Positions 1 to 17,022 of a DNA stretch of 17,022 nt are shown here, piece by piece. The stretch is from an uncultured Nitrososphaerales archaeon (lineage in GTDB: Archaea > Thermoproteota > Nitrososphaeria > Nitrososphaerales > Nitrososphaeraceae). The notes under the pieces are model-generated. The model had not been told where the DNA came from, did no database searches, and saw only the letters and a program-made list of their open reading frames with translations. The DNA is taken from the NCBI GenBank assembly GCA_963709405.1, contig CAVPXM010000092.1, forward strand, positions 1-17,022, in the 5' to 3' direction. Numbering within the stretch: position 1 is the first letter of the stretch; each line of letters begins with the position of its first letter. The position numbers and the translations under genes were made by a program.

Positions 1-224
1 TAGTAAATGCCTTGTAGCTGATAATCTTACTTTGCTTGAAGAATCAAATTCATATTAGGGCAGAGCAGAGATTATGAAGTTATATTTCAATCTAATTCGC
101 AGTATTTGTGAGTAATTGATATGGAATTGTGTTTCATATAGGCGAACTAAATCAATAATATATTTTAATATTGATGAGTAGAAAATAGTATCTTACAATA
201 TCGTTCGGCAAATTCAGTCAAAAT

Positions 225-461
225 TCAAGCTTTAGGTTCTAGATTCACTATGAGCTTACCTGTGAAGGTTCCGGTTATACCTATTAGTAGTAGACCAATT
301 TTATCTAATTCGTTGATGAAATGTTGGTTTATGAATTTCGTTTTCAGCCTGAGACGCCCTGTCTGAATATCTTGTTCTAACCCTTTTATATCAATGCCTA
401 TCATTTCAATTTTCTTTTGCCATCTTGCTAAACCATCGTCAGATTTCACCTCATCAGCCAT
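225..461 (-). CDS. Hypothetical protein, 78 aa
   Basis: ATG-started ORF with protein-like composition; no recognisable motif. Confidence 0.5.
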   Translation of the reverse strand: MADEVKSDDGLARWQKKIEMIGIDIKGLEQDIQTGRLRLKTKFINQHFINELDKIGLLLIGITGTFTGKLIVNLEPKA

Positions 462-612
462 TGAACAATAATCTCCAATTCTACTTCATCCGTATTGACA
501 TTGGATTACTTAATCCTTTTCTGTGTCGATATTCCTAGCGATATCCCTATTGTGTTATTCGTTGACTCGATTCGATACTTGGAATTTAGTGTGCTTTACT
601 TGAACATGTTTC

Positions 613-762
613 TTATTGGGGGGGAGGTCCAGTCTTACCGCCCTCCAGCATCCTATTATAGAAGTTCTGTTTATAATATCTTTCATAAAAGGAAGTGTGA
701 TTTTCCTCTAAATGCATCAGGTATTCGTGCACTCTCTGGGCGGCTTCTCTTCCAGATGACAT
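613..762 (-). CDS. Possible small hypothetical protein, 49 aa (MSSGREAAQRVHEYLMHLEENHTSFYERYYKQNFYNRMLEGGKTGPPPQ)
   Basis: Read manually: ATG at 762-760, TAA at 615-613. Below the ORF-track cutoff; overlaps the 3' end of the 683-1111 ORF in another frame. Confidence 0.3.
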   Translation of the reverse strand: MSSGREAAQRVHEYLMHLEENHTSFYERYYKQNFYNRMLEGGKTGPPPQ

Positions 763-1111
763 TGTTTTTACTACTAGCGACTTCGTTCAAGGCTTCATCC
801 TTTAATTCAGATATAGACATCGAGAAGGGGCGAAACTCGCCATGAACCTTGCTACTAAGAATCCACTCGCGACCTTCCCTCTCATTGATAAGCTTAAATG
901 TCAGATTATCCTCTTCCCTTATCTTCGCAATTTGAGTACCATTTAGTGATATTACAGCTTCCCGCGGTTTCCGGCTATTTATCACATATTCTGTATTCAA
1001 TCGCTCAATTACTAGGAATAATGGATTATGATAAGAATTTATAGCTTTATATGAATCTTTTTCAACCTGATTTCGAGCTGAAATGTGATTATTTTCTATA
1101 GTGCTGCCCAA
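683..1111 (-). CDS. Hypothetical protein, 142 aa, possibly truncated or chimeric at the C-terminus
   Basis: ORF track; the N-terminal ~110 aa look globular (beta-rich), while the last ~26 codons overlap another plausible frame. Confidence 0.45.
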   Translation of the reverse strand: MGSTIENNHISARNQVEKDSYKAINSYHNPLFLVIERLNTEYVINSRKPREAVISLNGTQIAKIREEDNLTFKLINEREGREWILSSKVHGEFRPFSMSISELKDEALNEVASSKNNVIWKRSRPESARIPDAFRGKSHFLL

Positions 1112-1237
1112 ACAAGTGAGTCATTCAGATTAATTCATTGCTACGTCCACTTTTGAAGAGAAAATAATGCCTGGCGTGCAATCAATTAGAAATCTTTTTA
1201 ATTCATTTGTGAAACTGTGCTATATAAGGGATATCGT

Positions 1238-1756
1238 GTGAAGTCTAACTTATTGTTGTCCATAGTTGGCACTAGCCTGTTGTTATTGATATTTGGTATT
1301 CCATTTTTGAAAGGAGGTCCGGTCGAATTTTTTGCTTCAGGTCTGGATCTAAAGCCTGCCAGTGGTAATCACTCGTTGTACATGCTCGCAAATATTACTA
1401 TAAATGGATTCAACCTACTAGCCGATGTTCCGACCACGAACGATCAATTTCAAAAAGGATTAGATATTAAAGATCATATTAAGGAGAACGAAGGGATGCT
1501 ATTCATTTTCAAACAGCCGGGTAAATACCCTTTTTGGATGCATGGCATGAAATTTCCGATAGATATCATCTGGCTTGATAATGATAGTAATGTTGTACAT
1601 GTAGAACATAACTTGTCACCATGTGTAATCGATCTTATGTGTCCAACGTACTCGCCGGAAAGAGACGCGATGTACGTGTTGGAAACCAAGGCGGGTTTTT
1701 CTGAAAGACATAATGTAAAGACGGGCTCGCACATGAATTATCATTTGATCAGATAA
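1238..1756 (+). CDS. DUF192 family protein with N-terminal membrane anchor
   Basis: Motifs KGL...EGMLFIF...FWMHGMKFPIDIIWLD...YVLETKAG are typical of DUF192; hydrophobic N-terminus. Start uncertain (GTG 1217, GTG 1238 or a later TTG). Confidence 0.9.
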   Translation: MKSNLLLSIVGTSLLLLIFGIPFLKGGPVEFFASGLDLKPASGNHSLYMLANITINGFNLLADVPTTNDQFQKGLDIKDHIKENEGMLFIFKQPGKYPFWMHGMKFPIDIIWLDNDSNVVHVEHNLSPCVIDLMCPTYSPERDAMYVLETKAGFSERHNVKTGSHMNYHLIR

Positions 1757-2047
1757 TCAATCTTGGACGAGAGTAACTATCTAAAGACCAGATATACAAG
1801 TTGAGCAATAATATAATGACTGCAGCGATTGACATTTTGATGGCAAACGAATCTATTTTTCGTCTTGGTAATAGCCGACTAAATAGATTAGCATATCAGG
1901 ATGATGGCACTTGAAGGAAAGAATTTGTAACATAGAGTGTATATGTTAATGAAAGTTGATGGTACATGTAATATTGCTCTCAGAAATGTCCTATCACTTG
2001 ATCCTTGACAATCCTTAAGTAATTGTTATTAGGTAAGGTAAGATTAC

Positions 2048-2728
2048 ATGGAATTAAAAATAACGGCTGTCATAGTATTCTTGATAGCAAACCTGTTTAC
2101 AATAGGATTGGTCTCTTTCCAGTCGAGCATCGTTAATGAAACATATGCAGCGTCCTCGAATGCAACTAATGCAACTAATGCAACATCGAATACAATGCAG
2201 GCTGCTCTTCAAAAAGAAGCGCTCAAATTAACCCCACCATCTTCTTCTAACGATGCTCAAATAACAACGACGAAAAATTCTATTGTTTTGGGAAATCCAT
2301 CATATATAGAATATATCAAAAGCATCCGACAACAACCTTTAGTCCTGAATACTGGACTGCATGCCGTTGGAATGATATTCATAGGTAAAGGAACGGTAAA
2401 GGGTACAAGCTTTGTACAGACTGAAGGCAAAGCATTGATTATACCGTTGTCCCAAGGAATTGCAGATATCGTTGGTGGTGGGCTTATCAGAGCTGCGAAT
2501 GGAGAAGGTGGGAATGCAACTTATAGCTTTAGGGAAATTGGCCATTATAATCCATCAACTCAGACCGCTCAAGGAACTGCGAATCAGATCATGAATGGAA
2601 CAGGAGCAGCCATATTTAACGCGAACGCCACTGGAAGCTTGTCTTTCCTTAGCAATACTGTGGTAATGTTTAAAGATGAAGGTAATCCAAGTGGTGTTAG
2701 TACGATCAAAGGATGGGAATGGAAGTAA
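2048..2728 (+). CDS. Secreted/surface hypothetical protein, 226 aa, with NAT repeats and a C-terminal WEWK
   Basis: Signal-peptide-like N-terminus, Ser/Thr/Asn-rich linker, Gly-rich beta-strand domain; 7 N-X-S/T sequons. Confidence 0.8.
   Translation: MELKITAVIVFLIANLFTIGLVSFQSSIVNETYAASSNATNATNATSNTMQAALQKEALKLTPPSSSNDAQITTTKNSIVLGNPSYIEYIKSIRQQPLVLNTGLHAVGMIFIGKGTVKGTSFVQTEGKALIIPLSQGIADIVGGGLIRAANGEGGNATYSFREIGHYNPSTQTAQGTANQIMNGTGAAIFNANATGSLSFLSNTVVMFKDEGNPSGVSTIKGWEWK
2159..2185 (+). repeat. 9-bp tandem repeat x3 (AATGCAACT, AATGCAACT, AATGCAACA) encoding NAT-NAT-NAT
   Basis: Directly visible in the sequence. Confidence 0.9.
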
Positions 2729-3252
2729 CTATATTAGAAGAATAGAACAAGCCGAATCTTTCGACTTGCCCTTTTCCTATCGGTTTGATTATCATATATT
2801 TTATCCTAAAAGCTGGTGTTAGATTGGCCTGTCCTTGTCTGTGATCCACAAAATTGAATGAAAAATTAAAAATCGCCTCAGGAGCTATAGGAAGTCTTGA
2901 GTCAACAGGTAATTTCTTCATACTGATATTTGCCCCATGAGATAATTAAATAGTCTCATCGTGAGAAGAACTACTCCGGCTAAGATGATTGATGTACTCT
3001 TTTTATATGTGCATGTTTAGCCGTCAACATATTACTCATGAACTGCGAATTGAAAACAAAACAAAACGTCAAATATAGTTTCGCCTAGTCAGTCAGCTGA
3101 GCTACATGGGAGGTACAATCGGTAAATATCGCCAAACAATTAAAAATATGCTTTCAACATAATAGTTTTGATTCCCTAAAACGCATTATTTTAGTTGTGG
3201 CCCAGTCCAATAGTTAAAGAAGGATTAAGGTCGTTTTATTTTCTTCATTCTC

Positions 3253-4083
3253 TCACCTTGATACACTTGACTGCATTGATTTACAGATCATCATTTCAGT
3301 GGAAGGACTTTCCGTAATAACTGACAGCAATAGTAGTTCTATCGGATACAAGATATTACCTACTAAGTATGCCATCCTGTCGCTATGACGCACGAGTGAC
3401 GTAATGGTACGCCACATTAATTTCAAAACAGATCGATTCGTATCAATCGGCGCATTCATTAAAACAAACATTGGACGACGCAGTATTACTTCGAAGTTGT
3501 TTTCGCGCAACGCTTTTTGAATAACGCTCAATGATCTGCTAACTTGACGTGCAGATCTTAATGAATCCTGATGTAGAAAATTATCTGAAAAAATAAAGAG
3601 GCCGCCAGGTTTTAATAATGAAAAAATATTTTTGATGGCATTGTTGTATCTCGAATCATCTACAATATGGAATAATACATCAAATGCAGAAATAATGTCA
3701 AATTTATTTTGAAGAGTTTTATAGCCCGCTTCATCTCCAATGTCTAGCTGTAAGAATTCGTTGGATGGATACATTGATCTCAAATTCTCCACAGCTACCA
3801 TTGTTATATCTGTGCCAGTTATCCTAATTACGCCGAGGTCTTTCCACAGTCTCACATAAAACCCTGTACCTGAACCAATATCCAACACGTTCACATTTCC
3901 ATAGTCAATATTCAGCTTTCTGATTCTCTGCACGAAGACCCGCCGCCTAACCTTATACATATATTCATTATATCGCCTTCCGAGGCCTTGGAAGCCTGTG
4001 CCATGTAATCCAAAATTTTCTTTTAATCTCCATTCCCAATAATCTTTAGAATTTAAATCGCTCAACTTAGGTGAACAGAACAA
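3253..4083 (-). CDS. Class I SAM-dependent methyltransferase
   Basis: Motif I VLDIGSGTG, acidic GTDIT, FDIISAFDVLFHI, LLKPGGLFIF. True start may be TTG at 4065. Confidence 0.92.
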   Translation of the reverse strand: MFCSPKLSDLNSKDYWEWRLKENFGLHGTGFQGLGRRYNEYMYKVRRRVFVQRIRKLNIDYGNVNVLDIGSGTGFYVRLWKDLGVIRITGTDITMVAVENLRSMYPSNEFLQLDIGDEAGYKTLQNKFDIISAFDVLFHIVDDSRYNNAIKNIFSLLKPGGLFIFSDNFLHQDSLRSARQVSRSLSVIQKALRENNFEVILRRPMFVLMNAPIDTNRSVLKLMWRTITSLVRHSDRMAYLVGNILYPIELLLLSVITESPSTEMMICKSMQSSVSR

Positions 4084-4178
4084 AGTACAACATATAAAAA
4101 TCTAGTGACTATCTGATCAACATCTAAAAATTACTATCTTGCTCTTGTTGTTGTTAAGATACATCACTTATCTAAAAG

Positions 4179-5018
4179 TTAAGTATGAAATATGCTCTTT
4201 ATTTTTTCGACCTGTTTTTTTCTTACAAATTGTCTGAGCTCTTCATCATAAACACAATTATACCCTTCATTTTCTGCCTTATATGTAAGATAATAATAGA
4301 TCATATATAACGAGCCACGTCGCCCTGTTACAGTCCCGGTTGAAAAGTACTTGGCGAACCTTCCTAATGCATACATTGGATGATATCCCAGTGTATGCAT
4401 ACTAGCTCCAAATTCAAAGAAGCGATGATTCAATCCTAGAGGCCTTGTATGTCGATACTTTGCTTCTTCTATTACAGCGTATTTGTAACCAAGATATTCT
4501 GCCTCATACAGAATAGCAGATTCATAACCCATTTGTTCAGGATAACTACCATTCCATCTAGTCTTTTCAAAAAAGGAATTTCTTATATATCTACCAGCAC
4601 CATGAGGCATTTCAGGTTTGTGTTTAGTATAATTGCCCGATACTACAGCTACATCAGGATTAGAATCCAAATACGAGACGATCCTAGCAGCGTAATTGGA
4701 AGGATATTCTGTATCATCTGTAGCGATTAGATGATAGTCTGTTCTAACCAAGTTTCTTTGTTTCACGAGCTGTAACGCTGCATTCCAATTCCTAACAACT
4801 CTTCTTATATCATATCCAACATCGGGATTTGTAATTATGAATAGCTCACTCCAGTTATGTTTCAGTTCTTCAAGAATCACTGGTGTATTGTCCTTAGAGC
4901 CATCATCTATAACTATAACATATTCTGGCTTCAATTCTTGATTCCTTAATGAGAGTAGCGCCGACTTGATACTGTCTTCCGAGTTCCTAGATGTCACAAT
5001 AGCAAAATAACTACCCAA
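4179..5018 (-). CDS. Glycosyltransferase family 2 (GT-A fold)
   Basis: VIVIDDGSKDNT motif, N-terminal strand IVTSRN, DXD-like ATDDT. Confidence 0.9.
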   Translation of the reverse strand: MGSYFAIVTSRNSEDSIKSALLSLRNQELKPEYVIVIDDGSKDNTPVILEELKHNWSELFIITNPDVGYDIRRVVRNWNAALQLVKQRNLVRTDYHLIATDDTEYPSNYAARIVSYLDSNPDVAVVSGNYTKHKPEMPHGAGRYIRNSFFEKTRWNGSYPEQMGYESAILYEAEYLGYKYAVIEEAKYRHTRPLGLNHRFFEFGASMHTLGYHPMYALGRFAKYFSTGTVTGRRGSLYMIYYYLTYKAENEGYNCVYDEELRQFVRKKQVEKIKSIFHT

Positions 5019-5293
5019 TTAATTATAGGACTAATGAGTAACATCAATTTTAAAGTTCTTTAATCTTTTGTTACGAGGAATCGTGGATAGTATACCACTA
5101 CGTCGGAATTCTAACGAGAATCATATAAATCCGACCTGCAATAATAACAGAAGTACTTGATAGGACTATTTGAATTTCAAGATAATCAATTTGTTCTATA
5201 ATAAGTAATAGTGTTCAATCATCTTCACTCACAATCAAAGTCGAACCTTAATTATAACAAAAAATTTTGAATTCAATGATATTAGGATCAGTG

Positions 5294-6433
5294 CTAAGAA
5301 AGCTGATAGGCCTGAAGTATATTTTTTTCGTACCTTTCCCATATCAAATCAGTTTTAGCAAATCCGAACGAGTCTTGCCTTTTCTTATATAGTAAATCTA
5401 AGTGGTCTTTGAAATATAACAGTTGAGAAACCATCTCTTCATAGCTATCAAACACTGAGCAATGACCTTGGAGCGTTCTAACTACGGGCTGAATAGATGA
5501 TGAACACATGACAAGGGCACCAGCGTGAGCATATTCATATGGCTTGTTTGGGTTGATGAAGAGATGAGCCCAATGCTTCCTCCATGGCACTAGGCCTATT
5601 GAATGATTGGAGATTTCATTAAACATATCTTGCCTAGATAGAAATCCTTTGTATCTAACCTTATCAGTTGATTTATTCTCCCAGCCCAATATCGTGAGAG
5701 TGCCAATTCCATTGTTTTCAAATAGCTCAGTAAAGCCGACCATGTTCCGATGCGGATAACTATCTATATTATGACCATCGCTGCCCGCATACACTGATGA
5801 TAATGACTGATGACATTTTGGATATTCAATATTACTAGTCTCAGATGTGAGAGGGAAGTTTGGTACAACAAACAATTTGCTCGAGCCTAATTTTCTCATT
5901 TCGTTCGAAATAGAATCAGAAACAGTAATAGTTGGAGTGGAACAAATAATCTCTTTTTCCCACTTGGCCCATAATTTTATAGCATAATAGTTTATGATTT
6001 TTCTTCTAGCATTAGTAGTCAATTCGAGAAAATTGTGACCCAAAGACTTTGGCTTAGACTCATTTAACCTTGGCTTCATTTCATTCAGGAGCCTTGAAGA
6101 AGCTGACCAGTACTCATGATCATCGTATACAAAAGGTACTTGAAATTCCGAAATCATTCTTGCAGAAAAAATATTGTGTGCATGAACGATATCTGGTCTT
6201 GTCTCATCCAACACCTTTGCTAATTTTCTCTTCACCGATTCCCAATACATTGGAATACCTAACCTTGCTTTTGCGTTCCAATTGATTTGATAGATTTTAT
6301 GAAATAGAGTGGTTTCGTAGTTCGATGGCCTACCACAAAAAAAGACCTGATGTCCATTCCTTGCTGCCGTAATAGCTGATTTTTCGACTCTCCAATCGGG
6401 TAGGCCTTCGTGAGACAAGTGCAATATTTTCAA
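5294..6433 (-). CDS. Glycosyltransferase, GT-B/GT4-like
   Basis: MKILHL start, PDIVHAHN, VYDDHEY, ITVS, VVPNFP, PNKPYEYAHAG (GT4 C-terminal motif). Confidence 0.88.
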   Translation of the reverse strand: MKILHLSHEGLPDWRVEKSAITAARNGHQVFFCGRPSNYETTLFHKIYQINWNAKARLGIPMYWESVKRKLAKVLDETRPDIVHAHNIFSARMISEFQVPFVYDDHEYWSASSRLLNEMKPRLNESKPKSLGHNFLELTTNARRKIINYYAIKLWAKWEKEIICSTPTITVSDSISNEMRKLGSSKLFVVPNFPLTSETSNIEYPKCHQSLSSVYAGSDGHNIDSYPHRNMVGFTELFENNGIGTLTILGWENKSTDKVRYKGFLSRQDMFNEISNHSIGLVPWRKHWAHLFINPNKPYEYAHAGALVMCSSSIQPVVRTLQGHCSVFDSYEEMVSQLLYFKDHLDLLYKKRQDSFGFAKTDLIWERYEKNILQAYQLS

Positions 6434-6807
6434 TTCTCATGTATCATAATCTTATCAGTATTTTAATTCCTATCTTAACAGTGAGTACGAATAAGTCACA
6501 CATTGTTATAATGCTACGCGAGGCAAGGCCTGCCATGGAAATATTACATTCATGTTCATGGTTATGGATATGCACTATATGAAATACAATCGTCAGACTA
6601 GACATTATAATTATCGTTGAATATGGTCCGACTCGAAGTTAGCCTTTGATCGACAGATTGCGAATACGAAGTCTAAGTTCAGAGTTGGGGGCGCTAAAAC
6701 GGTTCCACTCAAAGGTTTCAAATGACTACGATTGGTGCTTCATAGTTACAGATGACAACCAACCAGGAACGAAAATCCACGCCACGCCTAAGCCTGAGAA
6801 AAATATC

Positions 6808-7716
6808 CTATGTTCTTGCATATAATGACTGCATCTGTGCTACAACGTTTAACGGATTATGTTCAATCGGCAAATTCTCATGATATTGTAAACGGTAGTT
6901 TAATACTTTAAGACCACACCCGAGGGCTTCCAGAGCCGTCTTGCTTAGGTTAGGCAATAGTACTCCGTTAACATATCTGATATCCACATATACTGCGTAT
7001 TTTTTCAGGAATTCAGGCATATCCCTGTACATAATTGGGTGTTTCGCTCTATCATAAACATTGATATTCAGACGCACATTATTTTTCATACAATAACGCA
7101 TGGTTAAATTGCAATCAGTTGCTTCCGTGTCGATCGTCAAAGCCTCGTTATCTGAAACTTGTCTGTTGTTAAATCCGCGCATAAAATGTTCAGTGTCCAC
7201 TGGATTCGGAATATATATTGCCTGTTTAACCTGTGCCAAGAGATCAGGTGTTGCAACTATAGTGGCATCAGACAGTCTTTGAGCCTTCTCGTGTAGCCTG
7301 TGTTTTAATAGCAGCCTATCGCGCATCATTCTATAGCTGTAAATTGACCTTATTGCCATATCGGATAACGTTGATTTATGTGGTAATTTCACCTTCTTGA
7401 GTCCTCTTATGTCAGTTCCATGGTAATGTAAGATTATCCTCTTTGATTTCCCAAGTTCTTTACGTAACAAAAATAAAACATCAATTCTACTGTGGACATG
7501 AATTATATCAGCTGATTCAGCATGCATTAAACATTCTTCATTGAATTCTTTCTCGGAGTTTGCAAGTATTATATATTCTTTGTAAAAGTCCTTTATTCCG
7601 TATTTATCCGAGCTGCGAGTGGTTAGTACCTTTGATTCGTGTCCTTGCAGTTGCTGAAACTTGGCAAGAACAAATGCTACACCTGCCTGATCGAATATAT
7701 GAAGAATCCGTAACAT
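6808..7716 (-). CDS. Glycosyltransferase, GT-B/GT4-like (short)
   Basis: RILHI, ADIIHVH, HYHGTDIRG, IPNPVD, ALEALGCGLKV. Confidence 0.8.
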   Translation of the reverse strand: MLRILHIFDQAGVAFVLAKFQQLQGHESKVLTTRSSDKYGIKDFYKEYIILANSEKEFNEECLMHAESADIIHVHSRIDVLFLLRKELGKSKRIILHYHGTDIRGLKKVKLPHKSTLSDMAIRSIYSYRMMRDRLLLKHRLHEKAQRLSDATIVATPDLLAQVKQAIYIPNPVDTEHFMRGFNNRQVSDNEALTIDTEATDCNLTMRYCMKNNVRLNINVYDRAKHPIMYRDMPEFLKKYAVYVDIRYVNGVLLPNLSKTALEALGCGLKVLNYRLQYHENLPIEHNPLNVVAQMQSLYART

Positions 7717-7733
7717 GTATTCCCGGTAGAGTA

Positions 7734-8252
7734 TTACACATTCTCAGGGTTTACTTTTGCATCGATGGTGTTGGTTTTTTGAGTTTGCCCATTATCTTGT
7801 GGTGCATTTATAGTCGATGATGGCCTGAGCGCGGCGGTTCGAAGACTACGCCGAGTTATCTTAGTAAGCATTTCTCTCATTTGCAGTTTCTCTTCCTCTG
7901 ATACCCTTCCATCGATTAAGTCGATTACAAACAACCACATCGTGGCTCCTATTTCATTTTCCTTAAAAAGGGCATCTTGTTCCACTCTCCACTGGCTTTT
8001 TCGATGCCAATACCCAATAAATATACCTAGGGGTACATAAACTGCTATGAAAAGAAGAGCAAATCCCCATATACTATGAAATACTGAATTAAATAACGGA
8101 GCTTTGTCGATCAGTAACTTGTACTGGATGGTTATAAAATTAGCAAAAGTCATTATAAATATTAAATAAATACTGTGGCCATTACGAAAATCGAGCCATC
8201 GCCTCCTTACCCAATTTCCAGTAGCTTTTCGTATAAGGTCTCTAGTGAGCAT
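7734..8252 (-). CDS. Hypothetical membrane protein (2 predicted TM helices), 172 aa
   Basis: Two hydrophobic segments followed by a charged tail; co-oriented in the cluster. Confidence 0.75.
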   Translation of the reverse strand: MLTRDLIRKATGNWVRRRWLDFRNGHSIYLIFIMTFANFITIQYKLLIDKAPLFNSVFHSIWGFALLFIAVYVPLGIFIGYWHRKSQWRVEQDALFKENEIGATMWLFVIDLIDGRVSEEEKLQMREMLTKITRRSLRTAALRPSSTINAPQDNGQTQKTNTIDAKVNPENV

Positions 8253-8295
8253 ATAGGCTTAATGATCCTTTTTACTGTTAAAATATGTTACGCAT

Positions 8296-9838
8296 TCATT
8301 TGATATGAGTTTGGTTGATAACCTTCGCCGGCTGCGTCATGTGTGAATACACTCTCGATATAGTGATGATTTCAGATGAATAAACGCTTTTGATCTTCAG
8401 GCCACGGAGATCAGGACTTTCTCCCTTCAATGCGAATAAGTAACTATTTTGGGATTTTAAATTTCGTAAAAAATCGACAAGACCGTCATTGTTATTGAAA
8501 AAATGAAAGGTCCTGCCTTTTTCAAGCTCTAGTTCCATCCATCCCCTTAAGTGACTTGCTCCAATTATAGTTGCATTTGGTTTGGTATTTTTATTGATCC
8601 AATCTATGGCAGACAATAGCTTAGGATTCTCCTTTATATCAACTGAATTGAACTGCATGCTGACTGGTTCAAACGATCCCACATATCCACGCACGATTTC
8701 ATACAGTATAAACGGGCTACGATATGGTAATGCAATATAGCTTATCCCTATAATACCGAATACCGTTATTGCCATTAAAAGGACAGAATACCCCGCCTTC
8801 AAATTTTGGGCACGGACCCTTCTGCTAAGGATGATGAACCCATATCCTGCGAAAATGGAAAGAAAAATTCCAGTCAGTATGATCCATCTGTTAGCAACCA
8901 AAGATTCATTATTTGGAAAGAGTATCCATGAAAACGAGCCAAAAAGAGTGATTAGGAGTGCTATTTTTAGGATTTTATTATTATTCTGGTATCGCAAACC
9001 TAGCAAAGATGTAGGCAATAACAGACCGTTCACAATAATAAAAGAAACTAACAGATTGAACCCGTTGTAAGAGTTGGGGTTTATTCCCGAATGTCGAATT
9101 GTAACTGCCTGCTGTTCAATAAAACTGAAATTAATAACGTTACTCCACAGATTAGAGCCCGTGAACACAGCGATTATAAATATACAGAAGGCAATAATTG
9201 AACTCACAAGGGCTATCCTACAACTGGATTTAACAGCATATATAAGTAGAGAAAGCGAAAATAATCCACCAACCATTCTGTCCGATACAACAATAATAGA
9301 GGATAAGATTAGCGATGATATCAGTTTCAGCAGTTTGTTCTCATTAATGCTTACTCTGTGAACAGCAATCAGTGAAAAGGCGAACAACATTAGTGAGATG
9401 GAAAATACATCTTTGTGCAAATCCCATGACGTACGAAGCACAGCCATTTGTACGATTACAAAGACTGATAGGAATGCGCTTTCTGCTATAGTTGTCTTGA
9501 ACATTCTTATCCCTATCACGAAGATTGAGACAGAAAGTATTCCAAACATGACCGTGGCTGATGTTAAAACGGCAATATATGGGGACGACCCGACAGCATT
9601 AGCCAATAAATGCAGCAGATAGACGTACAATGGAAATTCGTGCGAAGTAGTTTGCCAATGAAGATCGAAATTTGTCAGTACCTGGGATGTAATAGTTAAT
9701 TACATCGTAACCTATAGGATACGGATATGCGAGCACTTCGGGAACGAGTCTAAGGACGCAACCAGCTGAAAAGACGAGCGCAGCCGCACAATATTTATCT
9801 GTTACAAATCGTGAAATCGGTGAAATAAAGGAGTGCAA
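8296..9838 (-). pseudogene. Polytopic membrane protein, GT-C-like (~513 aa), split by a 1-nt insertion at ~9681-9682
   Basis: ORFs 9599-9838 and 8296-9630 join as ...YPIGYDVINYYIP-VLTNFDLHWQTTSHEFPLYVYLLH... if one G of CCAGGTA (minus strand) is removed. About 10 or more TM segments, a first-loop GYD motif and a soluble C-terminal domain (AIDWINKNT). Could be a sequencing indel. Confidence 0.7.
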
Positions 9839-9882
9839 TCTTGGTCAAATGGATGCCAAATTAATATCGTGTCTTGGATCAT

Positions 9883-11151
9883 TCATAGGTGATGTGTATC
9901 TTTAATCTCACGAGTTACAAACAATTTATACCAAATTTCTAAGCTTAATAATTGAAGCAGTTTGCTAATATATCTCGGATCTCCGGTTTGATCTATTCTA
10001 GATAATGCACTAAGATACCATTTCTGATCTATTATTTGTTCCTCAAATATCCGACCTCGATCCAAATTAGACGTTACAATCTCTTTCCCCTCATTTGACC
10101 ATAATGTGTTCAAGTCCATGCCAAATCCTATTTTTTCGTTCTCAATGAACTCATGCTTGGAGTTGCGTTTTAGGATAGATCGCAGTGGAATCTTCCCAAC
10201 ATTATTTTTAAAATCATATTTCAAATCTGGAGGAATTTTGGTGGAGAGAATTACAACTTCGTCATCCAAAAGGGGTGCTATTCCCTTAATATTAAAATGG
10301 TGAAAATATTTCTCATTTGTGGGTACGAAATCGTGCATTAACTTACCATGATAGTCTGCATACAACAACTGGTCTAGTGGTTCTAGATCGTTGTTGAAAT
10401 ATTTTTCGAATATTTCGTAAATTGAAAACCAATTAAATTTCATCTTTTCTGCGAACATTTTTTCTTGATCATCTACCCAATCACGCTCATGACATTGTAG
10501 ATAGATCTGAATACGTTCTAGCGAAGTGGATTTTGATGTAATGGTTGAAAGGAATTTCCTATATCTGAACGTATATCCTGCAAATAATTCATCACCACCA
10601 TCCCCAGTAAACAGGATATTAGAAGTAGATTTTGCCTCCTTGATAAAATAATATTGATATATATTCCATCTCGGTTCTTTAACTATGCTTAACATTTTGA
10701 CTAGATCTCTTAATGGATTTTCTACAACGATATGATTGAATCCTGCTCCTTTACTCTCTGATATCTGCTTAGCAATCAAAACTTCATGATCATCGTAGAA
10801 GCTTACGCCATAACAATTGATGTCGATAGCTGGAAATTCTTCTCGTATTAGCGAAAATATAAGATTCGAATCTACACCTGTGCTCAATGCAAGCGCAATA
10901 CGGTTAGCGTTATTTGTCTCAACAGACTTTTTTATAATACGACGTAGAGTTTTTTCTATTTCCAAAGAAGTCGGAATTGGTTCTATGCTTTTTCTTTGAG
11001 CCAAAATTTGATCCGTGGTAATATTAATAATTTTAGATGTATTTTTTGGATAGGAAGGGTCATATCTCAATGTCAGCAAATTGCATAGATTTATCAACGG
11101 TAAGTCGTACTTCTGCCTTTTAAAAAATATATCGTAAGACTTGAGGCGCAA
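9883..11151 (-). CDS. Asparagine-synthetase-like ATP pyrophosphatase (synthetase domain only)
   Basis: PP-loop variant ALSTGVDS, TGDGGDELFAGY, APLLD, GKIPLR, KIGF, LEIW; no N-terminal Cys Ntn-glutaminase domain. Start uncertain. Confidence 0.88.
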   Translation of the reverse strand: MRLKSYDIFFKRQKYDLPLINLCNLLTLRYDPSYPKNTSKIINITTDQILAQRKSIEPIPTSLEIEKTLRRIIKKSVETNNANRIALALSTGVDSNLIFSLIREEFPAIDINCYGVSFYDDHEVLIAKQISESKGAGFNHIVVENPLRDLVKMLSIVKEPRWNIYQYYFIKEAKSTSNILFTGDGGDELFAGYTFRYRKFLSTITSKSTSLERIQIYLQCHERDWVDDQEKMFAEKMKFNWFSIYEIFEKYFNNDLEPLDQLLYADYHGKLMHDFVPTNEKYFHHFNIKGIAPLLDDEVVILSTKIPPDLKYDFKNNVGKIPLRSILKRNSKHEFIENEKIGFGMDLNTLWSNEGKEIVTSNLDRGRIFEEQIIDQKWYLSALSRIDQTGDPRYISKLLQLLSLEIWYKLFVTREIKDTHHL

Positions 11152-11256
11152 ATCTGATTTCCAAAATAAAGCAAAAGGAATCTATGAATCTGCGCTGCTC
11201 TTAAATTCTATATATTGATAGAATTTTAATGCATAACAACGATAGCCCTTGAAACT

Positions 11257-12138
11257 TCAAGGATTCATTCGTTTGTATGCTCCTTCCAATATCACCCCTA
11301 TTTTTTCTGGGGAGTGATATTTCTTTACATATTCTATTCCTTCTTTTGATAGTCTTTGTTGGGCGCTTGCGTCTTCTATTAAAGTTTCTAGATCCTGCCT
11401 AAAATTCTGCATAGTAGTCAGAAAGATTGGTGGTTTGTATTTATCGTATAACTTGTCAGAGACGTATGCGATGACCGGCTTTCCAAGTGCCATGCCTTCA
11501 AGCTCGAATCTCCCAAACCAGCCAATTTTCGGAATGATCTTTCCGATCACGATGTCGCAAGTAGAAATTAACCTTAATGTCTCTTCATACGAAAAGCCTA
11601 GTACTTTGATTATGTCACACTTACCAGTCTCCTGCAACGAATCTAATATCGCAGAATAAACATCATCATGCCCATACATTTTATAATAAGGATAATGTGC
11701 TATTCTGACTCTCCCTTCACGTTTATTTTCTGCCCGCGCTACCAACTCGTCGATATAAACTGGACTAGGAAGCCACGTTCCATTAGGGGCATATTGTAAC
11801 AAGTCAGGAGTCGAGACTAGACAAAAATCATCATCATGCTTCCCCCTAAGATCGTCACCGTGATAATGCTTGATGTATATCTTCCCACGTTTTCGTTTTT
11901 CTAAACCCACTCTTAACGAGCCGTATGGATAATGATAATGCCATATATCATATTCTTGCAACCTTCTAAATACTTTCCACCTTGAAAAAGGGGATTTGTA
12001 ATTTATCATAATTCCACCAAACTGATTATAGATCTTTGTGTTGAATACATAAACATCCGACAAATGTCCTTGTAATGTTTGCACCCGGGAAAGAGCAGAG
12101 CCGATACCTGAGGTATTGTTTATATGCGCAATTTTCAT
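11257..12138 (-). CDS. Glycosyltransferase, GT-B/GT4-like (short)
   Basis: MKIAHI, YDIWHYH, HYHGDDLRG, FGRFELEGMALGKPVI. Confidence 0.87.
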   Translation of the reverse strand: MKIAHINNTSGIGSALSRVQTLQGHLSDVYVFNTKIYNQFGGIMINYKSPFSRWKVFRRLQEYDIWHYHYPYGSLRVGLEKRKRGKIYIKHYHGDDLRGKHDDDFCLVSTPDLLQYAPNGTWLPSPVYIDELVARAENKREGRVRIAHYPYYKMYGHDDVYSAILDSLQETGKCDIIKVLGFSYEETLRLISTCDIVIGKIIPKIGWFGRFELEGMALGKPVIAYVSDKLYDKYKPPIFLTTMQNFRQDLETLIEDASAQQRLSKEGIEYVKKYHSPEKIGVILEGAYKRMNP

Positions 12139-12238
12139 GTCCGTGGTAACTAGTAAAGTGACATAATAGATAATGAACCTATTGAGATCGCAGGAATAAA
12201 ACGTAGCTAGAAATAACTAGCTAAAAACCAGTAAATTC

Positions 12239-13165
12239 CTAAATTTCAGAATTTTTATCAACGTGCATCTTGTATTTTTTCTCAAGAATCTGATACTTTT
12301 GTAAGTCGACAAGTCTATTGAATTCATCGAACGTAGTCATCATCTTTCTGTGTTTTACTGTCGTACCTTTCCTTTTTAACTCTGTAAAGACTTCATTAAC
12401 TGCGTAAGTAGCTGCATATAATCCTGATAATGGGAAAACTGCAATTCTATATCCAATATCAAGGAGTCGTTTTGCGTTCATATTCGGTGTGATTCCATCT
12501 TCGATCATGTTTGCGACCAATGGCGCGTCAATTTCGTTAGTAACTTTCTTTAATTCTGCAACTGATCTTGGAGCTTCTATAAAAATCACGTCTGCACCAA
12601 CCTCTCGGTATGCTCTTCCGCGTCTGATAGCCTCATCCAATCCTAGGGGTGCTCTCGAATCTGTTCTCGCAACTACAATGAACTCTTTGCTCTTCCTTGC
12701 TTCCAGAGCTGCTCTCAACTTCGAGATATAATCTTCCATTCCGATAACATCTTTACCTTGCATATGTCCGCATCTTTTTGGCCAGATTTGATCTTCTATA
12801 AAGATACCGGCCGCGCCTATCGATTCTAAATCGCGAACGATTTTCCAAACGGTTAACGGATTGCCATAACCTGTATCTATATCGACTATAACTGGCGAAT
12901 CTACAGATCGAATAATTCGAGTTGCATTATCTATCGTTTCGCCAGCATTTAAGAAGCCGTAGTCTGGCATCCCAAGCAGCGAAGCAGCAGAACCATATCC
13001 GGTCTGAAACATAGCATCAAATCCAACATTCTCTGCAATTTTTGCAGTCAATGCATCAAAAACTCCTGGAAGAACCAGAATATTCTTCTTGTCCTCAATC
13101 TTTTCTCTTAAAGATTTATTATTCTTCTGCTTCCTCAATTGCTTCTGTCTAAAAGGAGATTGCAA
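12239..13165 (-). CDS. prpB: Isocitrate lyase/PEP mutase family lyase, probable 2-methylisocitrate lyase
   Basis: DIDTGYG, IEDQ..PKRCGH, VARTD, GADVIFIEA, ANMIEDG.TP motifs. KRCGH indicates the lyase branch; exact substrate not provable from sequence. Confidence 0.75.
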   Translation of the reverse strand: MQSPFRQKQLRKQKNNKSLREKIEDKKNILVLPGVFDALTAKIAENVGFDAMFQTGYGSAASLLGMPDYGFLNAGETIDNATRIIRSVDSPVIVDIDTGYGNPLTVWKIVRDLESIGAAGIFIEDQIWPKRCGHMQGKDVIGMEDYISKLRAALEARKSKEFIVVARTDSRAPLGLDEAIRRGRAYREVGADVIFIEAPRSVAELKKVTNEIDAPLVANMIEDGITPNMNAKRLLDIGYRIAVFPLSGLYAATYAVNEVFTELKRKGTTVKHRKMMTTFDEFNRLVDLQKYQILEKKYKMHVDKNSEI

Positions 13166-13794
13166 TTATTAAAGGATCTGTTTCGATGGATCTTCAATAT
13201 GACCTTTCGATATATTTGAGAAAACCCAATTCTATCCTTATGTTTATTATTTGGACTTACAATGCTATTCCAATTTCTTAATTTTGTGATCTGTTCTTAT
13301 GAATAATGATGTCTGAATACCCACTCCTCAACAAGATATTGCTGCTATTCATATTTCTTGATTATTAATTATATATCAAAAGTATTCCCCTCAACTTGCG
13401 ATATTTTTAATTGCCATTTTTGAATATGACTATAACTCAATTAAAGCCTGTACTTCAAGACTAGACTACTATGTCTCCTATCCGTGAAATTTTGATATTT
13501 ATCCAAGCGAATATGCTCCCCAGGACATAGCAAAATGCATTTGCCCAATGGCGTATTGATTGGAGCGGCTGTAGGGAATAATGAGAATTGAACATCCTAA
13601 TGGCAACGATATCAATACCTGACAATGATTGGTCATCAATATGGGATTACCTCAGAATATGATTCATGCTCATCATTTATTCGCAGTTGGTCAAATATCT
13701 ACAAGACACTAATTTGAGATCACAGAAATAACTATTGGATAACGCAAAGGAGATTTGTATATTTTTTTGCTAGGATTGCTTAGGAAAGTGTTAT

Positions 13795-14040
13795 ATGAAT
13801 ATGAGTAAAAGAAAGGGCATACAAAAATTGCAAGACGACGATGGTCACTTGTCCAGATTAAAAAAGAATGCTCTTGACCAGAAGGAACCTGTTGTAGTAA
13901 AAACCATTATTGATACTATTGCAGCATTTGGGAGGGAGGGAATAGAACCTATACTAGAAATTCTGAGGCAGTCGACAGATAAGTCAGTGAAAATACACGG
14001 AAGTGAAGTAATTAGACGAATAAAGATGCTAAATCCTTAA
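13795..14040 (+). CDS. Small helical (HEAT-repeat-like) hypothetical protein, 81 aa
   Basis: Pattern VVKTIIDTIAAFGREGIEPILEIL...DKSVK resembles HEAT/PBS helical hairpins. Confidence 0.6.
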   Translation: MNMSKRKGIQKLQDDDGHLSRLKKNALDQKEPVVVKTIIDTIAAFGREGIEPILEILRQSTDKSVKIHGSEVIRRIKMLNP

Positions 14041-14227
14041 TTTTATGATTCAATTTCCCCTATGACGCAGATTGTATCGACCTCCACTATTAATTGAAAC
14101 AGTCATAGAGTAAATGTCTCGACTGTATTTTTAACCCGATCCGAGCCGCTGCTTTCTAACCCATATATTGTCAAACACTAATCGGTCGATCACATTGTTG
14201 GGAAGGAATCGGTTTCTGTGATATAAA

Positions 14228-14365
14228 ACTCCCTAGTTGTAACACGATCACCCTAGACGCAACACAGTACGAGAACTTCCGGCTTCGCAACAGGGAGTGC
14301 TGTTGCAATCTCGGGTGCTCTCATAACATGTTGCACGCGGGTGCTAAGTGTTGCATGATGGGAGC
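14228..14365. repeat. Dyad-symmetric ~137-bp site: three CACCC-N5-6-GCAAC boxes, GCAACAG-GGAGTG-CTGTTGC core, three inverted boxes
   Basis: G(C/T)AAC at 14239, 14259, 14287 and GTTGC at 14302, 14330, 14350 are exactly mirror-symmetric about 14296/14297 (20 and 28 bp spacing in both arms). Confidence 0.93.
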
Positions 14366-14402
14366 TAATAAGTTAAAGCTCTGATTGTCTTAAAAGATAT
14401 GA

Positions 14403-14594
14403 TTGGTAAGCATTGAAGAAGTAAAGAAACATGCTGTTGAGATTATAGAGAGTCAGATTCATCTGACTCTGCTTTTAACCCAGTTAAATAATAAAGAAAT
14501 TGAAGAATTTAATCAATGGTATAAAACTAACTGGCATTATATGAAATTGCAGGAATTTCTGCAACTTATGGCACAGAAACGGCACACTCGCTAG
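14403..14594 (+). CDS. Small hypothetical cargo protein, 63 aa
   Basis: TTG-started helical ORF with an AT-rich TATA-like stretch (ATAAGTTAAA, 14368-14377) directly inside the left site. Confidence 0.55.
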   Translation: MVSIEEVKKHAVEIIESQIHLTLLLTQLNNKEIEEFNQWYKTNWHYMKLQEFLQLMAQKRHTR

Positions 14595-14625
14595 TTATTT
14601 CAAGGCTGCTATTGTTGCGTCAATT

Positions 14626-15883
14626 TCAATGGTGTTGATTCCAGCAGTCCGCCTGTCTCATTAGGCTTTCCACTTTGTTATGACCTAAATGCAATTCTAA
14701 CCCCGCTTTTTCCGCTGGAGTCTGGTTCTTTAATGCCTGATGAGGTCTAATGAAATTATAATGAATACGCATAGCATCGACTAGTTCCTGTGTGGGATTT
14801 GCTTTATCCAGTCCATGCGTGACCGTCTCTCTATCCCTTACGGTTCCATTCAGCCTTTCGACTTTAGAGTTTAATCCCTGATGTCCTGAGCCTATGCTTC
14901 TGATGTTTTGGATCTTTGGATTCTTTAGAGTAAAAAGTTCTTTATTAAATGCATCATCATACGCTGGCAATCCGTCATGAATTAGGGCTGAAGGTAAAGG
15001 GCGCGCGCCGTTTCATCTCCTTTAATAGCGCTACACCTGATTTGGTGTCACGTTTCTGACTTATCCTAGAACATATCCAGAACCTAGTAGTAGAATCCAT
15101 TAGATTCCATAGCCATGAATAGTGATTATCGAATTGTCTGTTAGTATGGTTATCTGGATTACTTAAAGTCATTTTAGATTCATTATTTTCCTTACGGACA
15201 TGTAGCATCATTTCGTCTACCTGATAGACACCTCCGACCTGTGGGACCAGACTGTCCACATATGGCTGAACGGTTTTACTGAACTTGCGTAACCATCTAC
15301 AGATAGAAGAGCAATTAATTTTAAAATTATAGAACTGCTTAAGGTGGTCGGCTATCTTACGCAGCGATACTCCTTTAAAGTAAAGGTCGACGGCAGCGGT
15401 GATTAGTTTTGCAGATGCCTTGGAATTCTCGAATGCTGGGTTTATGGTAAATCGATAGTTGCAGACTTTACATAGATAACGTTGAAGGTCACCACTGTTT
15501 TTGTTGTGTCTAACTACGAACTTTTTATAATTAGCGCTTAGGCACTTTGGACATACGATCTGACCTATATCGATAGCATTGTAATTACCGATATTCTCAT
15601 TATTAACTAACTGAGCAAATGTATCCTGATAGATTTTCTTTCGTAATAACTTGCTAAATTTAACGGCATGGACGTGCTTGCATTCCAGATGTCTAAATGC
15701 AAAATCAGGACATTCACACATCCAGCCATCGCTGTAATTACGAGCTACGATATACCACGTATTAGGATCTGACTGTGAGCGCACTTTATAGGTGAGTTTG
15801 TTTAATCGCTGAAGCGCTATGTCTGTATTGGCGATTTCTAGTCCTCTCATCTCCCGCGCAGTCAGATCCGTGTATGCAACCAT
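14626..15883 (-). pseudogene. DDE transposase/integrase (IS6-like) with N-terminal SWIM zinc finger, C4 zinc ribbon and HTH; ~418 aa, split by a 1-nt insertion at ~14996-15001
   Basis: SWIM CECPDF..LECKH; CPKC..CKVC; HTH GVSLRKIADHL..ICRWLRKF; catalytic VDEM, IHDG (only after frame correction: RAPLPSALIHDGLPAY) and VERLNGTVRDR; C-terminal HYNFIRPHQAL..TPAE. Confidence 0.9.
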
Positions 15884-15947
15884 TGATATCAATAGTTACA
15901 TACATAGATTTATAAATGTTATTATCGATATCAATAGATATCAATAT
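15882..15947. promoter_or_regulatory. Divergent promoter/operator: palindromic TATA box ATTTATAAAT (15908-15917) flanked by GATATCAATA x3
   Basis: GATATCAATA at 15885-15894, 15927-15936 and 15937-15946; perfect palindrome ATTGATATCAAT at 15882-15893 overlapping the transposase ATG. Confidence 0.7.
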
Positions 15948-16088
15948 ATGGCAATGAAGAGAATCCTAGTATCGGTGTCTGAAGATTTGTATGACAGTAT
16001 AGAAAAAGAGAGAAAACTTCGTAAGCTTGAAACAGTTCCAGAGGCAACAAGAGCTATCTTAAGTGATTATTTCTTCACAGAGAACTAG
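15948..16088 (+). CDS. Ribbon-helix-helix (CopG/Arc/MetJ-like) DNA-binding protein, 46 aa
   Basis: MAMKRILVSVSEDLYDSIEKERKLRKLETVPEATRAILSDYF shows an alternating beta strand plus two helices; ATG at 15948 within the longer 15819-16088 ORF. Confidence 0.8.
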   Translation: MAMKRILVSVSEDLYDSIEKERKLRKLETVPEATRAILSDYFFTEN

Positions 16089-16902
16089 CGGAAAGACATT
16101 CATACGGTTCAGAGTTATCTAATAACATGTCGTATTCAGAGCAATATCGATTAAAGAAAGCCTGATTTGCTTTCAGGTATGTAACATCGCTTGGTCTTGA
16201 ACTAGAATCACTTCCTACTGGTCGGCTTTCGACATATATCCACGCCTTATCCGCATTGTCTCTATCTATAATTATTATACTATGTTGTGAGATAGAATCA
16301 TACAGCCTGATTCGTACTAGGTCTTTGAATTCATTTTTTAATTTGCATAGTATTTCGAGTGACCCTTGAATCTGTTCCTTTATATCTTCACCTCCATGAT
16401 ACATCTTGCTTTGGACTTCTATAGATGATGAATCAGGATTTGATAATAAGAAAGTGATATGCACCTTTCTGGATAGCAATCCTTTCAGGACGTCGTAATT
16501 TGCATATGTGACAATCCTAAACGTTATTGCTAGCATTTCTATCCGTCCTTCAGCTTTGTAAAGCATCTCATTGAACGGTAGCTGAGATCTATTCTCATAA
16601 TGTTGTATACCATTTTTAATTGACTGTTGGGTTATGAGTGGTTTTGGTTCTGACATCTTTTCTTTAGGAATGATAACTTCCTCCACTGATAGAGGAGACA
16701 ATTTTATATCATTCCTGCTAAACCGATTGTTAATTTTATCTCTAAATCCCCATACAAATAGGCCAATAATACCAGCAGCAATAAAATATGGAATAACGTT
16801 TAGTAGAACACTATTCAATGGCCACCAACTCATGAAAATGCCCAGAATCATAATTGCTACGAGAACGACAATGCCAATCCCTGCTACTACTTCTTTCTTC
16901 AT
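16075..16902 (-). CDS. Membrane-anchored protein (2 TM) with a C-terminal DUF5919/PLD-like domain, 275 aa
   Basis: Two N-terminal hydrophobic helices; IEMLAITF, ITFLLSNPDS, IRLYDSISQHSIIIID, IYVE and FFNRYCSEYDML pattern recalled as DUF5919-like. Confidence 0.65.
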   Translation of the reverse strand: MKKEVVAGIGIVVLVAIMILGIFMSWWPLNSVLLNVIPYFIAAGIIGLFVWGFRDKINNRFSRNDIKLSPLSVEEVIIPKEKMSEPKPLITQQSIKNGIQHYENRSQLPFNEMLYKAEGRIEMLAITFRIVTYANYDVLKGLLSRKVHITFLLSNPDSSSIEVQSKMYHGGEDIKEQIQGSLEILCKLKNEFKDLVRIRLYDSISQHSIIIIDRDNADKAWIYVESRPVGSDSSSRPSDVTYLKANQAFFNRYCSEYDMLLDNSEPYECLSASSL

Positions 16903-16950
16903 AACCCTTTTGAATCAGTATTTTAATAAAGGCTATAATAAGCCTCACCG

Positions 16951-17022
16951 AACACCCGTCTTGCAACACAATCACCCTAGGTGCAACGGCTTGTGAGAGC
17001 ACCCTAGTATGCAGCAGGACTT
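16951..17022 (+). repeat. Second copy of the three-box arm (direct repeat of 14227-14298; inverted relative to 14300-14365), cut off by the window end
   Basis: CACCC-GTCTT-GCAAC (16953-16967), CACCC-TAGGT-GCAAC (16973-16987), CACCC-TAGTAT-GCAGCAG (17000-17017); ungapped 45/68 identity to 14227-14294 at offset 2724. Confidence 0.92.

Follow-up and report, generated by a model that had tools for sequence, protein, structure and literature searches.

The stretch of DNA analysed here (the window, 17,022 nucleotides) is the whole of contig C92 in an assembly (G000; 4.8 Mb, 37% G+C) of an uncultured Nitrososphaerales archaeon, placed in the Nitrososphaeraceae by the names attached to homologous proteins. 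Near its right end, at 14228-14365, lies an imperfect palindrome that a first-pass annotation, made from the letters alone, had described as a single dyad-symmetric transposase-loading site with six boxes around a 7-6-7 core. All of these boxes were found where that annotation had placed them. The left arm carries the pairs CTCCC (14229-14233) and GTAAC (14239-14243), CACCC (14249-14253) and GCAAC (14259-14263), and CTTCC (14276-14280) and GCAAC (14287-14291). The core GCAACAG-GGAGTG-CTGTTGC occupies 14287-14306, and the right arm carries GTTGC (14302-14306) and GGGTG (14313-14317), GTTGC (14330-14334) and GGGTG (14339-14343), and GTTGC (14350-14354) and GGGAG (14360-14364). An extra element in each arm was likewise recovered, as GAGAAC at 14271-14276 and as GCTCTC, the reverse complement of GAGAGC, at 14317-14322. 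The mirrored spacing of 20 and 28 bp that had been claimed for the boxes was exact for the GCAAC/GTTGC half-boxes only and failed for the CACCC/GGGTG half-boxes (20/27 versus 26/21). The box pattern is real and not a product of chance: the motif GTTGCN{4,6}GGGWG matched six times in the 17-kb window, compared with 0.04 matches expected, and six matches were reached in none of 200 shuffles. Two of these six strict matches fall at 16953-16987, within a third copy of the array that extends to the end of the contig and that was absent from the first-pass annotation.

The two arms of the palindrome proved to belong to different elements. The right arm is an intact terminal inverted repeat (TIR; 14296-14366, + strand), the end 3' of a transposase gene, with the tip AGTGCTGTTGCAAT and boxes at 14300/14302-14317, 14330-14343 and 14350-14364. 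As 14296-14336 is an inverted repeat of 16981-17021, positions 14296-17021 constitute one element of 2,726 bp, a defective IS6-like insertion sequence (IS) with passenger open reading frames (ORFs) and TIRs at both ends. Its second TIR (16951-17021, - strand; profile match E 3e-16) faces a PadR-like gene, by homology with a second contig, C30. Just outside the element, at 17022, the contig ends with a T that agrees with the opening base of the right-hand copy of a target duplication, TTCTAAGG. The left arm is the relic, or solo, TIR of an earlier element (14227-14293, - strand; boxes at 14229-14243, 14249-14263 and 14276-14291). Its four terminal bases are missing, and it matched the TIR profile at model positions 4/5-71 in both nhmmer and covariance-model searches. 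Between the two arms, GG (14294-14295) represents the last two bases of the 8-bp spacer, or target duplication, TTCTAAGG, the other six having been deleted together with the 4-base tip of the relic.

The dyad symmetry thus exists because two copies of one three-box TIR face each other; it is a fossil junction and not a working machine, and the single six-box loading site does not hold. The first-pass annotation had also placed cleavage in or next to the 6-nt spacer of the core: the IS boundary (14295|14296) does lie inside GGAGTG, and the cleavage point there is something that we infer. A profile of the 71-bp unit detected only six copies in the 4.8-Mb assembly (E 4e-17 to 2e-13, the best being 14296-14366), namely both element ends and the left arm of the palindrome in C92 and the same three in C30. 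An array of host transcription-factor sites unrelated to transposition would also show repeated bipartite boxes in intergenic DNA next to a regulator gene; all six copies, however, end or abut a transposase-bearing element, and in other genomes the unit bounds elements with 8-bp duplications, which ties the motif to this transposase family, as had been proposed, and makes a host-factor array hardly credible.

The state of the junction before its decay could be read from C30. The blocks in which C92 matches C30:160446-184463 have nucleotide identities of 73.8-99.2%, with 90.9-99.2% in the five long collinear ones, and the match stems either from a segmental duplication or from the presence of another strain in the bin. 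Positions 1-14375 of the window are a second copy of C30:160446-182796, where C30 has about 10 kb extra between the equivalents of 11537 and 11596 and has its glycosyltransferase and phosphoenolpyruvate mutase genes split into shorter ORFs. At the C30 junction the order is relic end (full-length, 182637-182707), TTCTAAGG and IS end, with exactly 8 bp between the tips; beyond the far end of the C30 element, TTCTAAGG comes again, and then the PadR promoter. The presence of TTCTAAGG on both sides of the C30 element identifies the 8-bp spacer as that element's target-site duplication. MAFFT alignment of C92 with C30 placed a 10-column gap (CACTTTCTAA) at the centre of the palindrome, corresponding to the 4-base tip of the relic and six of the eight spacer bases; the GGAGTG core thus consists of GG, a spacer remnant, and AGTG, the first four bases of the IS. 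Instability of the palindrome may account for this 10-bp loss.

Several further differences separate the two loci. The first 11 bases of the window IS end (AGTGCTGTTGC, 14296-14306) are identical to the relic tip of C30 and not to its IS end (AGTCCTGCTGC), the C30 tips compared being those at L001:4698-4708 and L001:4717-4727, and the centre in the window is therefore a more perfect palindrome than that in C30. One arm may have been corrected against the other, or the sequences may simply have diverged. In the halves upstream of the transposase, the C92 and C30 elements are non-homologous (window 15362-17021 versus L001:6464-6896), and their PadR-side ends differ, that of C30 resembling an end of the element in genome G002, although both lie in the same 8-mer; either part of the element has been replaced or two separate insertions have entered one target. 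The relic end was most like the PadR-side end of the element in genome G006, a likeness that fits a history in which the relic was the earlier occupant and the 2.7-kb element the newcomer. When the intergenic regions of G006 and G001 were aligned with C92 and C30 by MAFFT, they were not alignable beyond the IS tip.

Within the window element, a frameshift near 15,000 splits the transposase into a C-terminal catalytic piece (rve_3; 14626-14970, - strand; Pfam PF13683, E 2.5e-11) and an N-terminal piece (14975-15892, - strand) with a SWIM-type CxC..CxH finger, a zinc ribbon, a helix-turn-helix and the start of the DDE domain. Compared with a 476-amino-acid (aa) homologue, it also lacks the last ~70 aa of its intact relatives. 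The broken pieces matched only rve_3 and weak zinc-ribbon/Mutator models, and the assembly contained no close intact transposase copy, the best other match being 29.5% identical. The window element is probably immobile now. Two of its other ORFs, of 63 aa (14403-14594, + strand) and 89 aa (15819-16088, + strand), matched no family. A 275-aa passenger ORF (16075-16902, - strand), with a hydrophobic N-terminus by eye, has no confident family: it had no Pfam match and only a weak DrmC match in PADLOC (E 0.004). To the left of the palindrome, an 81-aa ORF at 13795-14040, helical-repeat-like by eye and without a family match, keeps its synteny in sister species at 75-76% nucleotide identity, and a 73-aa ORF loosely similar to it adjoins a junction in genome G013 (L029:5273-5494).

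The same type of end was then found in other genomes, all of them metagenome bins or draft assemblies, among which related genomes are not independent; contigs frequently end at these elements, which leaves arrays visible piecemeal and makes the counts given here lower bounds. Twenty ends from several genomes aligned over 72 columns without gaps. Conservation spans about 71 bp, within which the box is repeated twice more, near positions 35-49 and 55-69. T3, C5, G7 and C11 of the tip were strictly invariant, and T6, the GG of box 1, the GTTGC of box 2 and the GG of boxes 2 and 3 were invariant or nearly so. Each TIR thereby comprises an IS6-type tip (AGTNCTGYTGCAA) and three direct copies of the bipartite box GTTGC-N4-6-GGGWG. 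Two sub-types were distinguished by GGGWG or GGTTG half-boxes, and a third, in which GTTAAC replaces GTTGC, was recognised by eye. With a sequence-only covariance model of the end, 51 of 151 family genomes yielded 121 matches in all at E <= 0.01, and most of these ends have their partner 0.8-5 kb away and not adjacent.

These data bear directly on whether the palindrome acts as a transcribed structured RNA or a single-stranded DNA hairpin with internal loops. Folded as a single strand, the region reached -57.7 kcal/mol on the + strand (z -4.1 versus shuffles) and -64.5 kcal/mol on the - strand (z -6.3), which would favour a hairpin; folding of both strands better than shuffles is, in any case, expected of any 138-bp imperfect palindrome. 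Rfam 15 gave no match at gathering score anywhere in the window, and at E <= 1 it returned nothing credible, only the microRNA precursor mir-960 at 23.6 bits against a cut-off of 100. A bacterial promoter scan found 4 promoter-like sites versus 4.2 expected, for a promoter type that is wrong for an archaeon, and a bacterial terminator scan found no terminators. All the supposed stems share one consensus, the arms come from different elements, and matching ends mostly lie 0.8-5 kb apart. One consensus in every box, together with distant partners, has the look of protein-binding repeats and not of a selected hairpin, which we therefore consider very unlikely. The alignment of homologous sites that the first-pass annotation had proposed as a check gave conservation in the tip and boxes and variable inter-box columns over the 20 ends, and its preference for double-stranded protein-binding repeats over an RNA stem was supported, given that most copies have no paired neighbour.

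Elements of sister species G006 and G002, whose transposases are 83-84% identical, have the same ends and perfect 8-bp duplications (CTTGAGGA and ATACAAGT, respectively). Perfect 8-bp duplications also flank the elements of C30 (TTCTAAGG), G008:C10 (TGCATTGG) and G021:C298 (ACATTCAA) and those of metagenome loci L123 (ATTGGCGC) and L099 (CCTGAGGA). Intact transposases of relatives have 476-500 aa with PF13610 (DDE_Tnp_IS240) and PF13683, some also with PF04434 (SWIM), and their elements measure 2.2-5.1 kb with 1-4 passenger ORFs. The intact G006 transposase (476 aa) scored 34.3 bits for PF13610, above the cut-off of 27, and IS6 was its best NCBIfam family, at a score below the cut-off of that family; by these profile scores, the transposase appears to be IS6-like.

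Passenger genes vary between elements. One in G008:C10 (L023:2903-3703) encodes a TIR-domain protein (the protein domain of that name; PF13676, E 2e-22) that matched ThsB-like and other TIR-type defence models in PADLOC, and one in G002 (L004:929-1294) carries the Pfam domain DUF5919; defence-like genes may be among the cargo of the family. Non-autonomous derivatives of 0.95-2.8 kb (L042:4290-7119, G142:C20:74926-75874, G248:C123:2592-4003 and L123:4313-5312) all have both three-box ends and 8-bp duplications and stand within the same stacks; no transposase match was found in L042, the one examined among the four. The element at the same PadR site of a sister species (G001:C31; L016 ~8100-10315) has its transposase gene inverted relative to the window; only its PadR-side end was detectable, the other end and the first codons of the gene being missing. 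Dozens of free-standing ORFs of ~65-115 aa match only transposase residues ~10-85, the SWIM-finger part, at 37-46% identity. Examples in G000 are C36:63191-63394, C44:3555-3758, C59:14453-14647 and C6:88087-88290, with many more in relatives, and they are possibly domesticated or regulatory fragments.

Junctions like that of C30 were found repeatedly. Both tips were detected across an 8-bp spacer in C30 (TTCTAAGG), G008:C10 (TGCATTGG), G021:C298 (ACATTCAA), G244:C667, which is metagenome locus L123 (ATTGGCGC), G013:C31 (CTCTGTTA) and metagenome locus L099 (CCTGAGGA). In G092:C4 (GGCATTAA) the partner is degenerate, and in G249:C111 the centre is deleted, as in the window. In all five elements with both ends and the junction visible (C30, G008:C10 3746-8824, G021:C298 4290-7119, L123 4313-5312 and L099 2812-7319), the spacer equals the element's own far-side duplication. 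Whole arrays share one 8-mer: TGCAATAC in G248, CCAAATCC in G146, TGCATTGG in G008, ATTGGCGC in L123 and CCTGAGGA in L099. A strict palindromic junction pattern, run over 238 family genomes, was set aside: it matched in 8 genomes forward versus 5 for the reversed control, and by inspection only G000 (at two places) and G092 had real junctions among the matches. The pattern is so strict that divergent tips escape it, and yet loose enough to admit GCAGCAG repeats.

Junctions that recur with a spacer of duplication length recall the circle junctions of IS30 or IS911 (the accessible part of PMC9333248), and those of C30 and C92 join two different end types, as a head-to-tail dimer would. An active junction between inverted repeats, produced by circles or tandem dimers and assembled and cut by the transposase at its centre, would account for these properties. 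It does not account for the deletion of the left tip in the window, for the ordinary far-side duplication of each junction element, or for the roughly three quarters of ends that lie outside any junction in the census described below. In G008:C10, moreover, two transposase genes (6454-7907, +, and 12397-10922, -) converge on the junction at 8824/8833, and the passengers of the two elements differ. With both genes pointing at it, this junction abuts two ends of the same kind and is therefore not that of a circle or head-to-tail dimer, neither of which can give such an arrangement. We consider an active junction unlikely.

To what the ends are joined was surveyed in a census of 100 ends, made up of flanks of the model's better matches, the earlier loci and 14 metagenome loci with a real end, these last from at least 80 pattern-scan loci. 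Alignments starting after model position 8, flanks shorter than 60 nt and the two window-centre tips were left out, and L043 and L123 are the same junction, counted twice. A 22-nt tip matrix scored >= 9 at offset +9 in 22 of the 100 ends and at other offsets from 1 to 300 only twice; with a score >= 0, there were 26 ends at +9 and 26 spread over all other offsets. A second regularity concerned the core CTAGYRAT, which stood at +27 in 23 ends and at +28 in 2. It stood at +39 in 12 cases, which we read as the second half of a PadR operator, and at other offsets five times, once each. In non-junction flanks, A+T rises to ~80% at offsets 16-21, read as a TATA-like stretch. A different conserved flank (..CCGTTATA) was present at 7 ends, one of which precedes the ATG of a SufB-like gene (PF01458) by 36 nt.

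Of the 25 CTAG sites, fifteen (14 genomes, 4 genera) lie upstream of a PadR-like gene whose ATG follows the duplication by 38-40 nt. This gene matches PF03551 (E 6e-10) and is present in 141 of the 151 family genomes, with the unpublished G234, G235 and G250 among those counted. The duplication ends 18 nt before the CTAG, just upstream of the TATA-like stretch. The 8-mers vary by genome and the distance to CTAG is constant, even where there is one A more or fewer just after the duplication. In the sister species G003 and G005 the site is empty and a related 8-mer is present in single copy. A tip detected by the profile lay 46-48 nt upstream of the ATG in 7 of 30 PadR loci, and about five more divergent tips were recognised by eye. 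The remaining 10 of the 25 CTAG sites have no such ATG-led ORF and a different downstream sequence, and therefore the motif, and not only the PadR-like gene, marks the target. No orientation bias was seen in the insertions of the family. Many family contigs have one of their ends 50-170 nt upstream of the PadR-like gene (for instance G241:C339:172, G087:C105:63, G246:C78:55, G016:C92:55 and G144:C3:104). Such breaks are what repeated elements there would do to short-read assemblies, and the family would explain why contigs of Nitrososphaeraceae bins frequently break at this place.

Insertion guided by resident ends has to be weighed against insertion guided by the operator. A resident TIR loaded with transposase could draw a newcomer into the 8 bp at its tip, as in IS30 (the accessible part of PMC9333248), the operator-linked sites being old seeds that are kept occupied; such attraction may also act together with an anchored target. 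It explains the +9 rule equally well, neighbouring tips standing at exactly 8 bp and almost nowhere else, and it suits L123, in which the middle element, ~2.5 kb away from the PadR promoter, is flanked by identical 8-mers and the copy nearest the promoter has decayed. It leaves unexplained why the same CTAG distance is found at 10 ends without a PadR-type ATG-led ORF and in single-element genomes without a detectable neighbour (G006), and why the operator distance is kept despite a 1-nt upstream indel (GG-AAAAG versus GG-AAAAAG). Arrays on one 8-mer are predicted by both models, so most of the data do not discriminate between them, and we retain attraction by resident ends as a tentative, rather doubtful alternative.

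The explanation that we favour, with a probability of roughly 0.8, is that the palindrome is the junction of two ~71-bp TIRs of an IS6-like Nitrososphaeraceae IS family, in a stack formed by repeated insertion into an operator-anchored 8-bp target. Its observed basis comprises the anatomy of the locus, the TIR architecture, the 8-bp duplications, the exact +9 and +27 regularities and the stacks of elements 8 bp apart. As for the mechanism, of which we infer the protein that binds the boxes, the reader of the operator and the order of insertions, each box would bind a transposase protomer, with box 1 bringing the active site to the tip (14295|14296) and the other two boxes aiding assembly; the bipartite form of the box would suit two DNA-binding modules. 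Insertions of the family would enter an 8-bp target lying at a constant spacing from a palindromic, CTAG-centred operator, which at the window locus would sit in the promoter of the PadR-like gene and could be read by the extra domains of the transposase or by a bound host regulator. After each insertion one copy of the 8-mer would stay beside the promoter at an unchanged distance from the operator, and the next element would consequently land there, its tip 8 bp away from that of its predecessor. In the window, the 2.7-kb element would be such a newcomer and the earlier occupant would have decayed to 67 bp, a 10-bp deletion at the palindrome centre having removed its 4-base tip and six spacer bases.

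A bolder formulation, on which we are evenly divided, takes the SWIM-finger IS6-like family to be a site-specific, promoter-anchored transposon of archaea that oxidise ammonia, with the operator ATC(A/G)CTAG(C/T)GAT (for example ATCRCTAGYGAT) directing integration 18 nt upstream, outside the TATA box and transcription factor B recognition element (BRE). The operator would be read by the transposase or by an exploited host PadR-like repressor, and integration just outside the TATA/BRE region would spare the gene. Successive elements, some with TIR-domain or other defence-like passengers, would pile up in this landing pad, and the three-box ends would let one protein handle resident ends and newcomers alike.

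Several observations count against the stacking of IS6-like elements at an anchored target. For the intact G006 transposase, the best NCBIfam family, IS6 (NF033587), was reached with 76.6 bits, below the cut-off of 125. The boxes are putative transposase-binding sites, a role suggested by their position and conservation. Instead of being paralogues, C92 and C30 may come from two strains that share one bin. The window junction is degenerate, and the 10-bp difference from C30 comes from assemblies, in which palindrome centres are prone to assembler error, so it should be read as a probable deletion. A profile search of the whole assembly found no partner TIR for the relic. At the same site in G006 no relic was detectable, the left-flank alignment score of 18 being equalled in 319 of 2000 shuffles and in 64 of 630 natural windows. 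In L123 the most decayed copy of the duplication is the promoter-proximal one (TTTGGGGC versus ATTGGCGC), a state more in keeping with attraction by resident ends than with an order of insertion strictly anchored on the promoter. Finally, 42 of the 100 census ends have neither a neighbouring tip nor either conserved flank. These may be promoter-distal array ends or other target types; their flanks show a modest rise in A+T at offsets 16-24 (73% versus about 60%), a hint of further promoter-type targets and no more.

We compared the family with known systems, beginning with IS6/IS26, among which PMC7986276 and PMC6807381 also treat clades of archaeal members and of long transposases. Like these, it makes an 8-bp target duplication, and its DDE transposase, with the IS240-type domain (PF13610), appears to be of the same type. 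The resemblance of the core to the IS26 inverted repeat that the first-pass annotation had pointed out is that of an IS6/IS26-type tip: against the bacterial IS6 terminal consensus, GGTTCTGTTGCAAA (as given in the accessible part of PMC6807381), the end of L024 matches at 14 of 14 positions and the window end AGTGCTGTTGCAAT at 11 of 14. Several sites per end are foreign to classical IS6, as had also been remarked: TIRs there measure 14-20 bp (PMC7986276 and PMC6807381, in their accessible parts), unlike the ~71-bp, three-box TIR of this family. Unlike the IS6/IS26 transposases of 213-254 aa, those of the family have 476-556 aa and include a SWIM finger and a zinc ribbon as well as an extension at the C-terminus, and unlike compact one-ORF IS6 elements of ~0.7-0.9 kb, the family ranges over 0.8-5 kb with passengers, the window element having 2,726 bp. 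Insertion at a fixed distance from an operator-like palindrome and tip-to-tip stacking also set it apart from IS6/IS26. The accessible part of the IS6 review PMC7986276 names a single member with a passenger and neither mentions SWIM fingers or subterminal sites nor describes anchored target choice, and thaumarchaeal IS6 members are mentioned in the accessible part of neither that review nor PMC6807381. A survey of the thaumarchaeal mobilome (PMC6563490) counts IS by family and, in its accessible part, does not describe their ends. Our literature search found no description of the ends or targets of this family, the supplementary tables of PMC6563490, which may list such elements, being outside the search.

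With IS30 the family shares the abutting of new copies on a resident end across a spacer of duplication length (2 bp in IS30, 8 bp here) and a second, sequence-defined kind of preferred target, the IS30 "hot spots" (PMC9333248, accessible part). According to the same part of that source, IS30 junctions exclusively join a left inverted repeat to a right one (IRL-IRR), through copy-out-paste-in circles or dimers, and are unstable intermediates; unlike these, the G008:C10 junction joins ends of the same kind, and the junctions of the family persist in genomes. For IS6 elements, which the family resembles, the known pathway is replicative cointegrate formation, unlike that of IS30.

Several transposase-binding repeats per end are a property of Mu, Tn7 and IS21, and like these the family has direct repeats of a site within each end, one of them overlapping the tip. 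Unlike in Mu, Tn7 and IS21, the transposases and accessory proteins of which are unrelated, no ATPase or target-selector gene was seen in the elements of the family. Insertion into a "safe harbour" is a strategy known from a handful of elements in bacteria and eukaryotes. The usual view of IS6/IS26-type elements is that they are minimal, consisting of a single gene between ends of 14 bp, and the large archaeal branch proposed here would depart from that picture in its long three-box ends, its passengers, a nucleotide-exact choice of site by a promoter operator and its stacks on one re-used 8-mer. If this is true, it would offer a tractable archaeal system in which to study how a DDE transposase gauges how far it is from a bound regulator or promoter complex.

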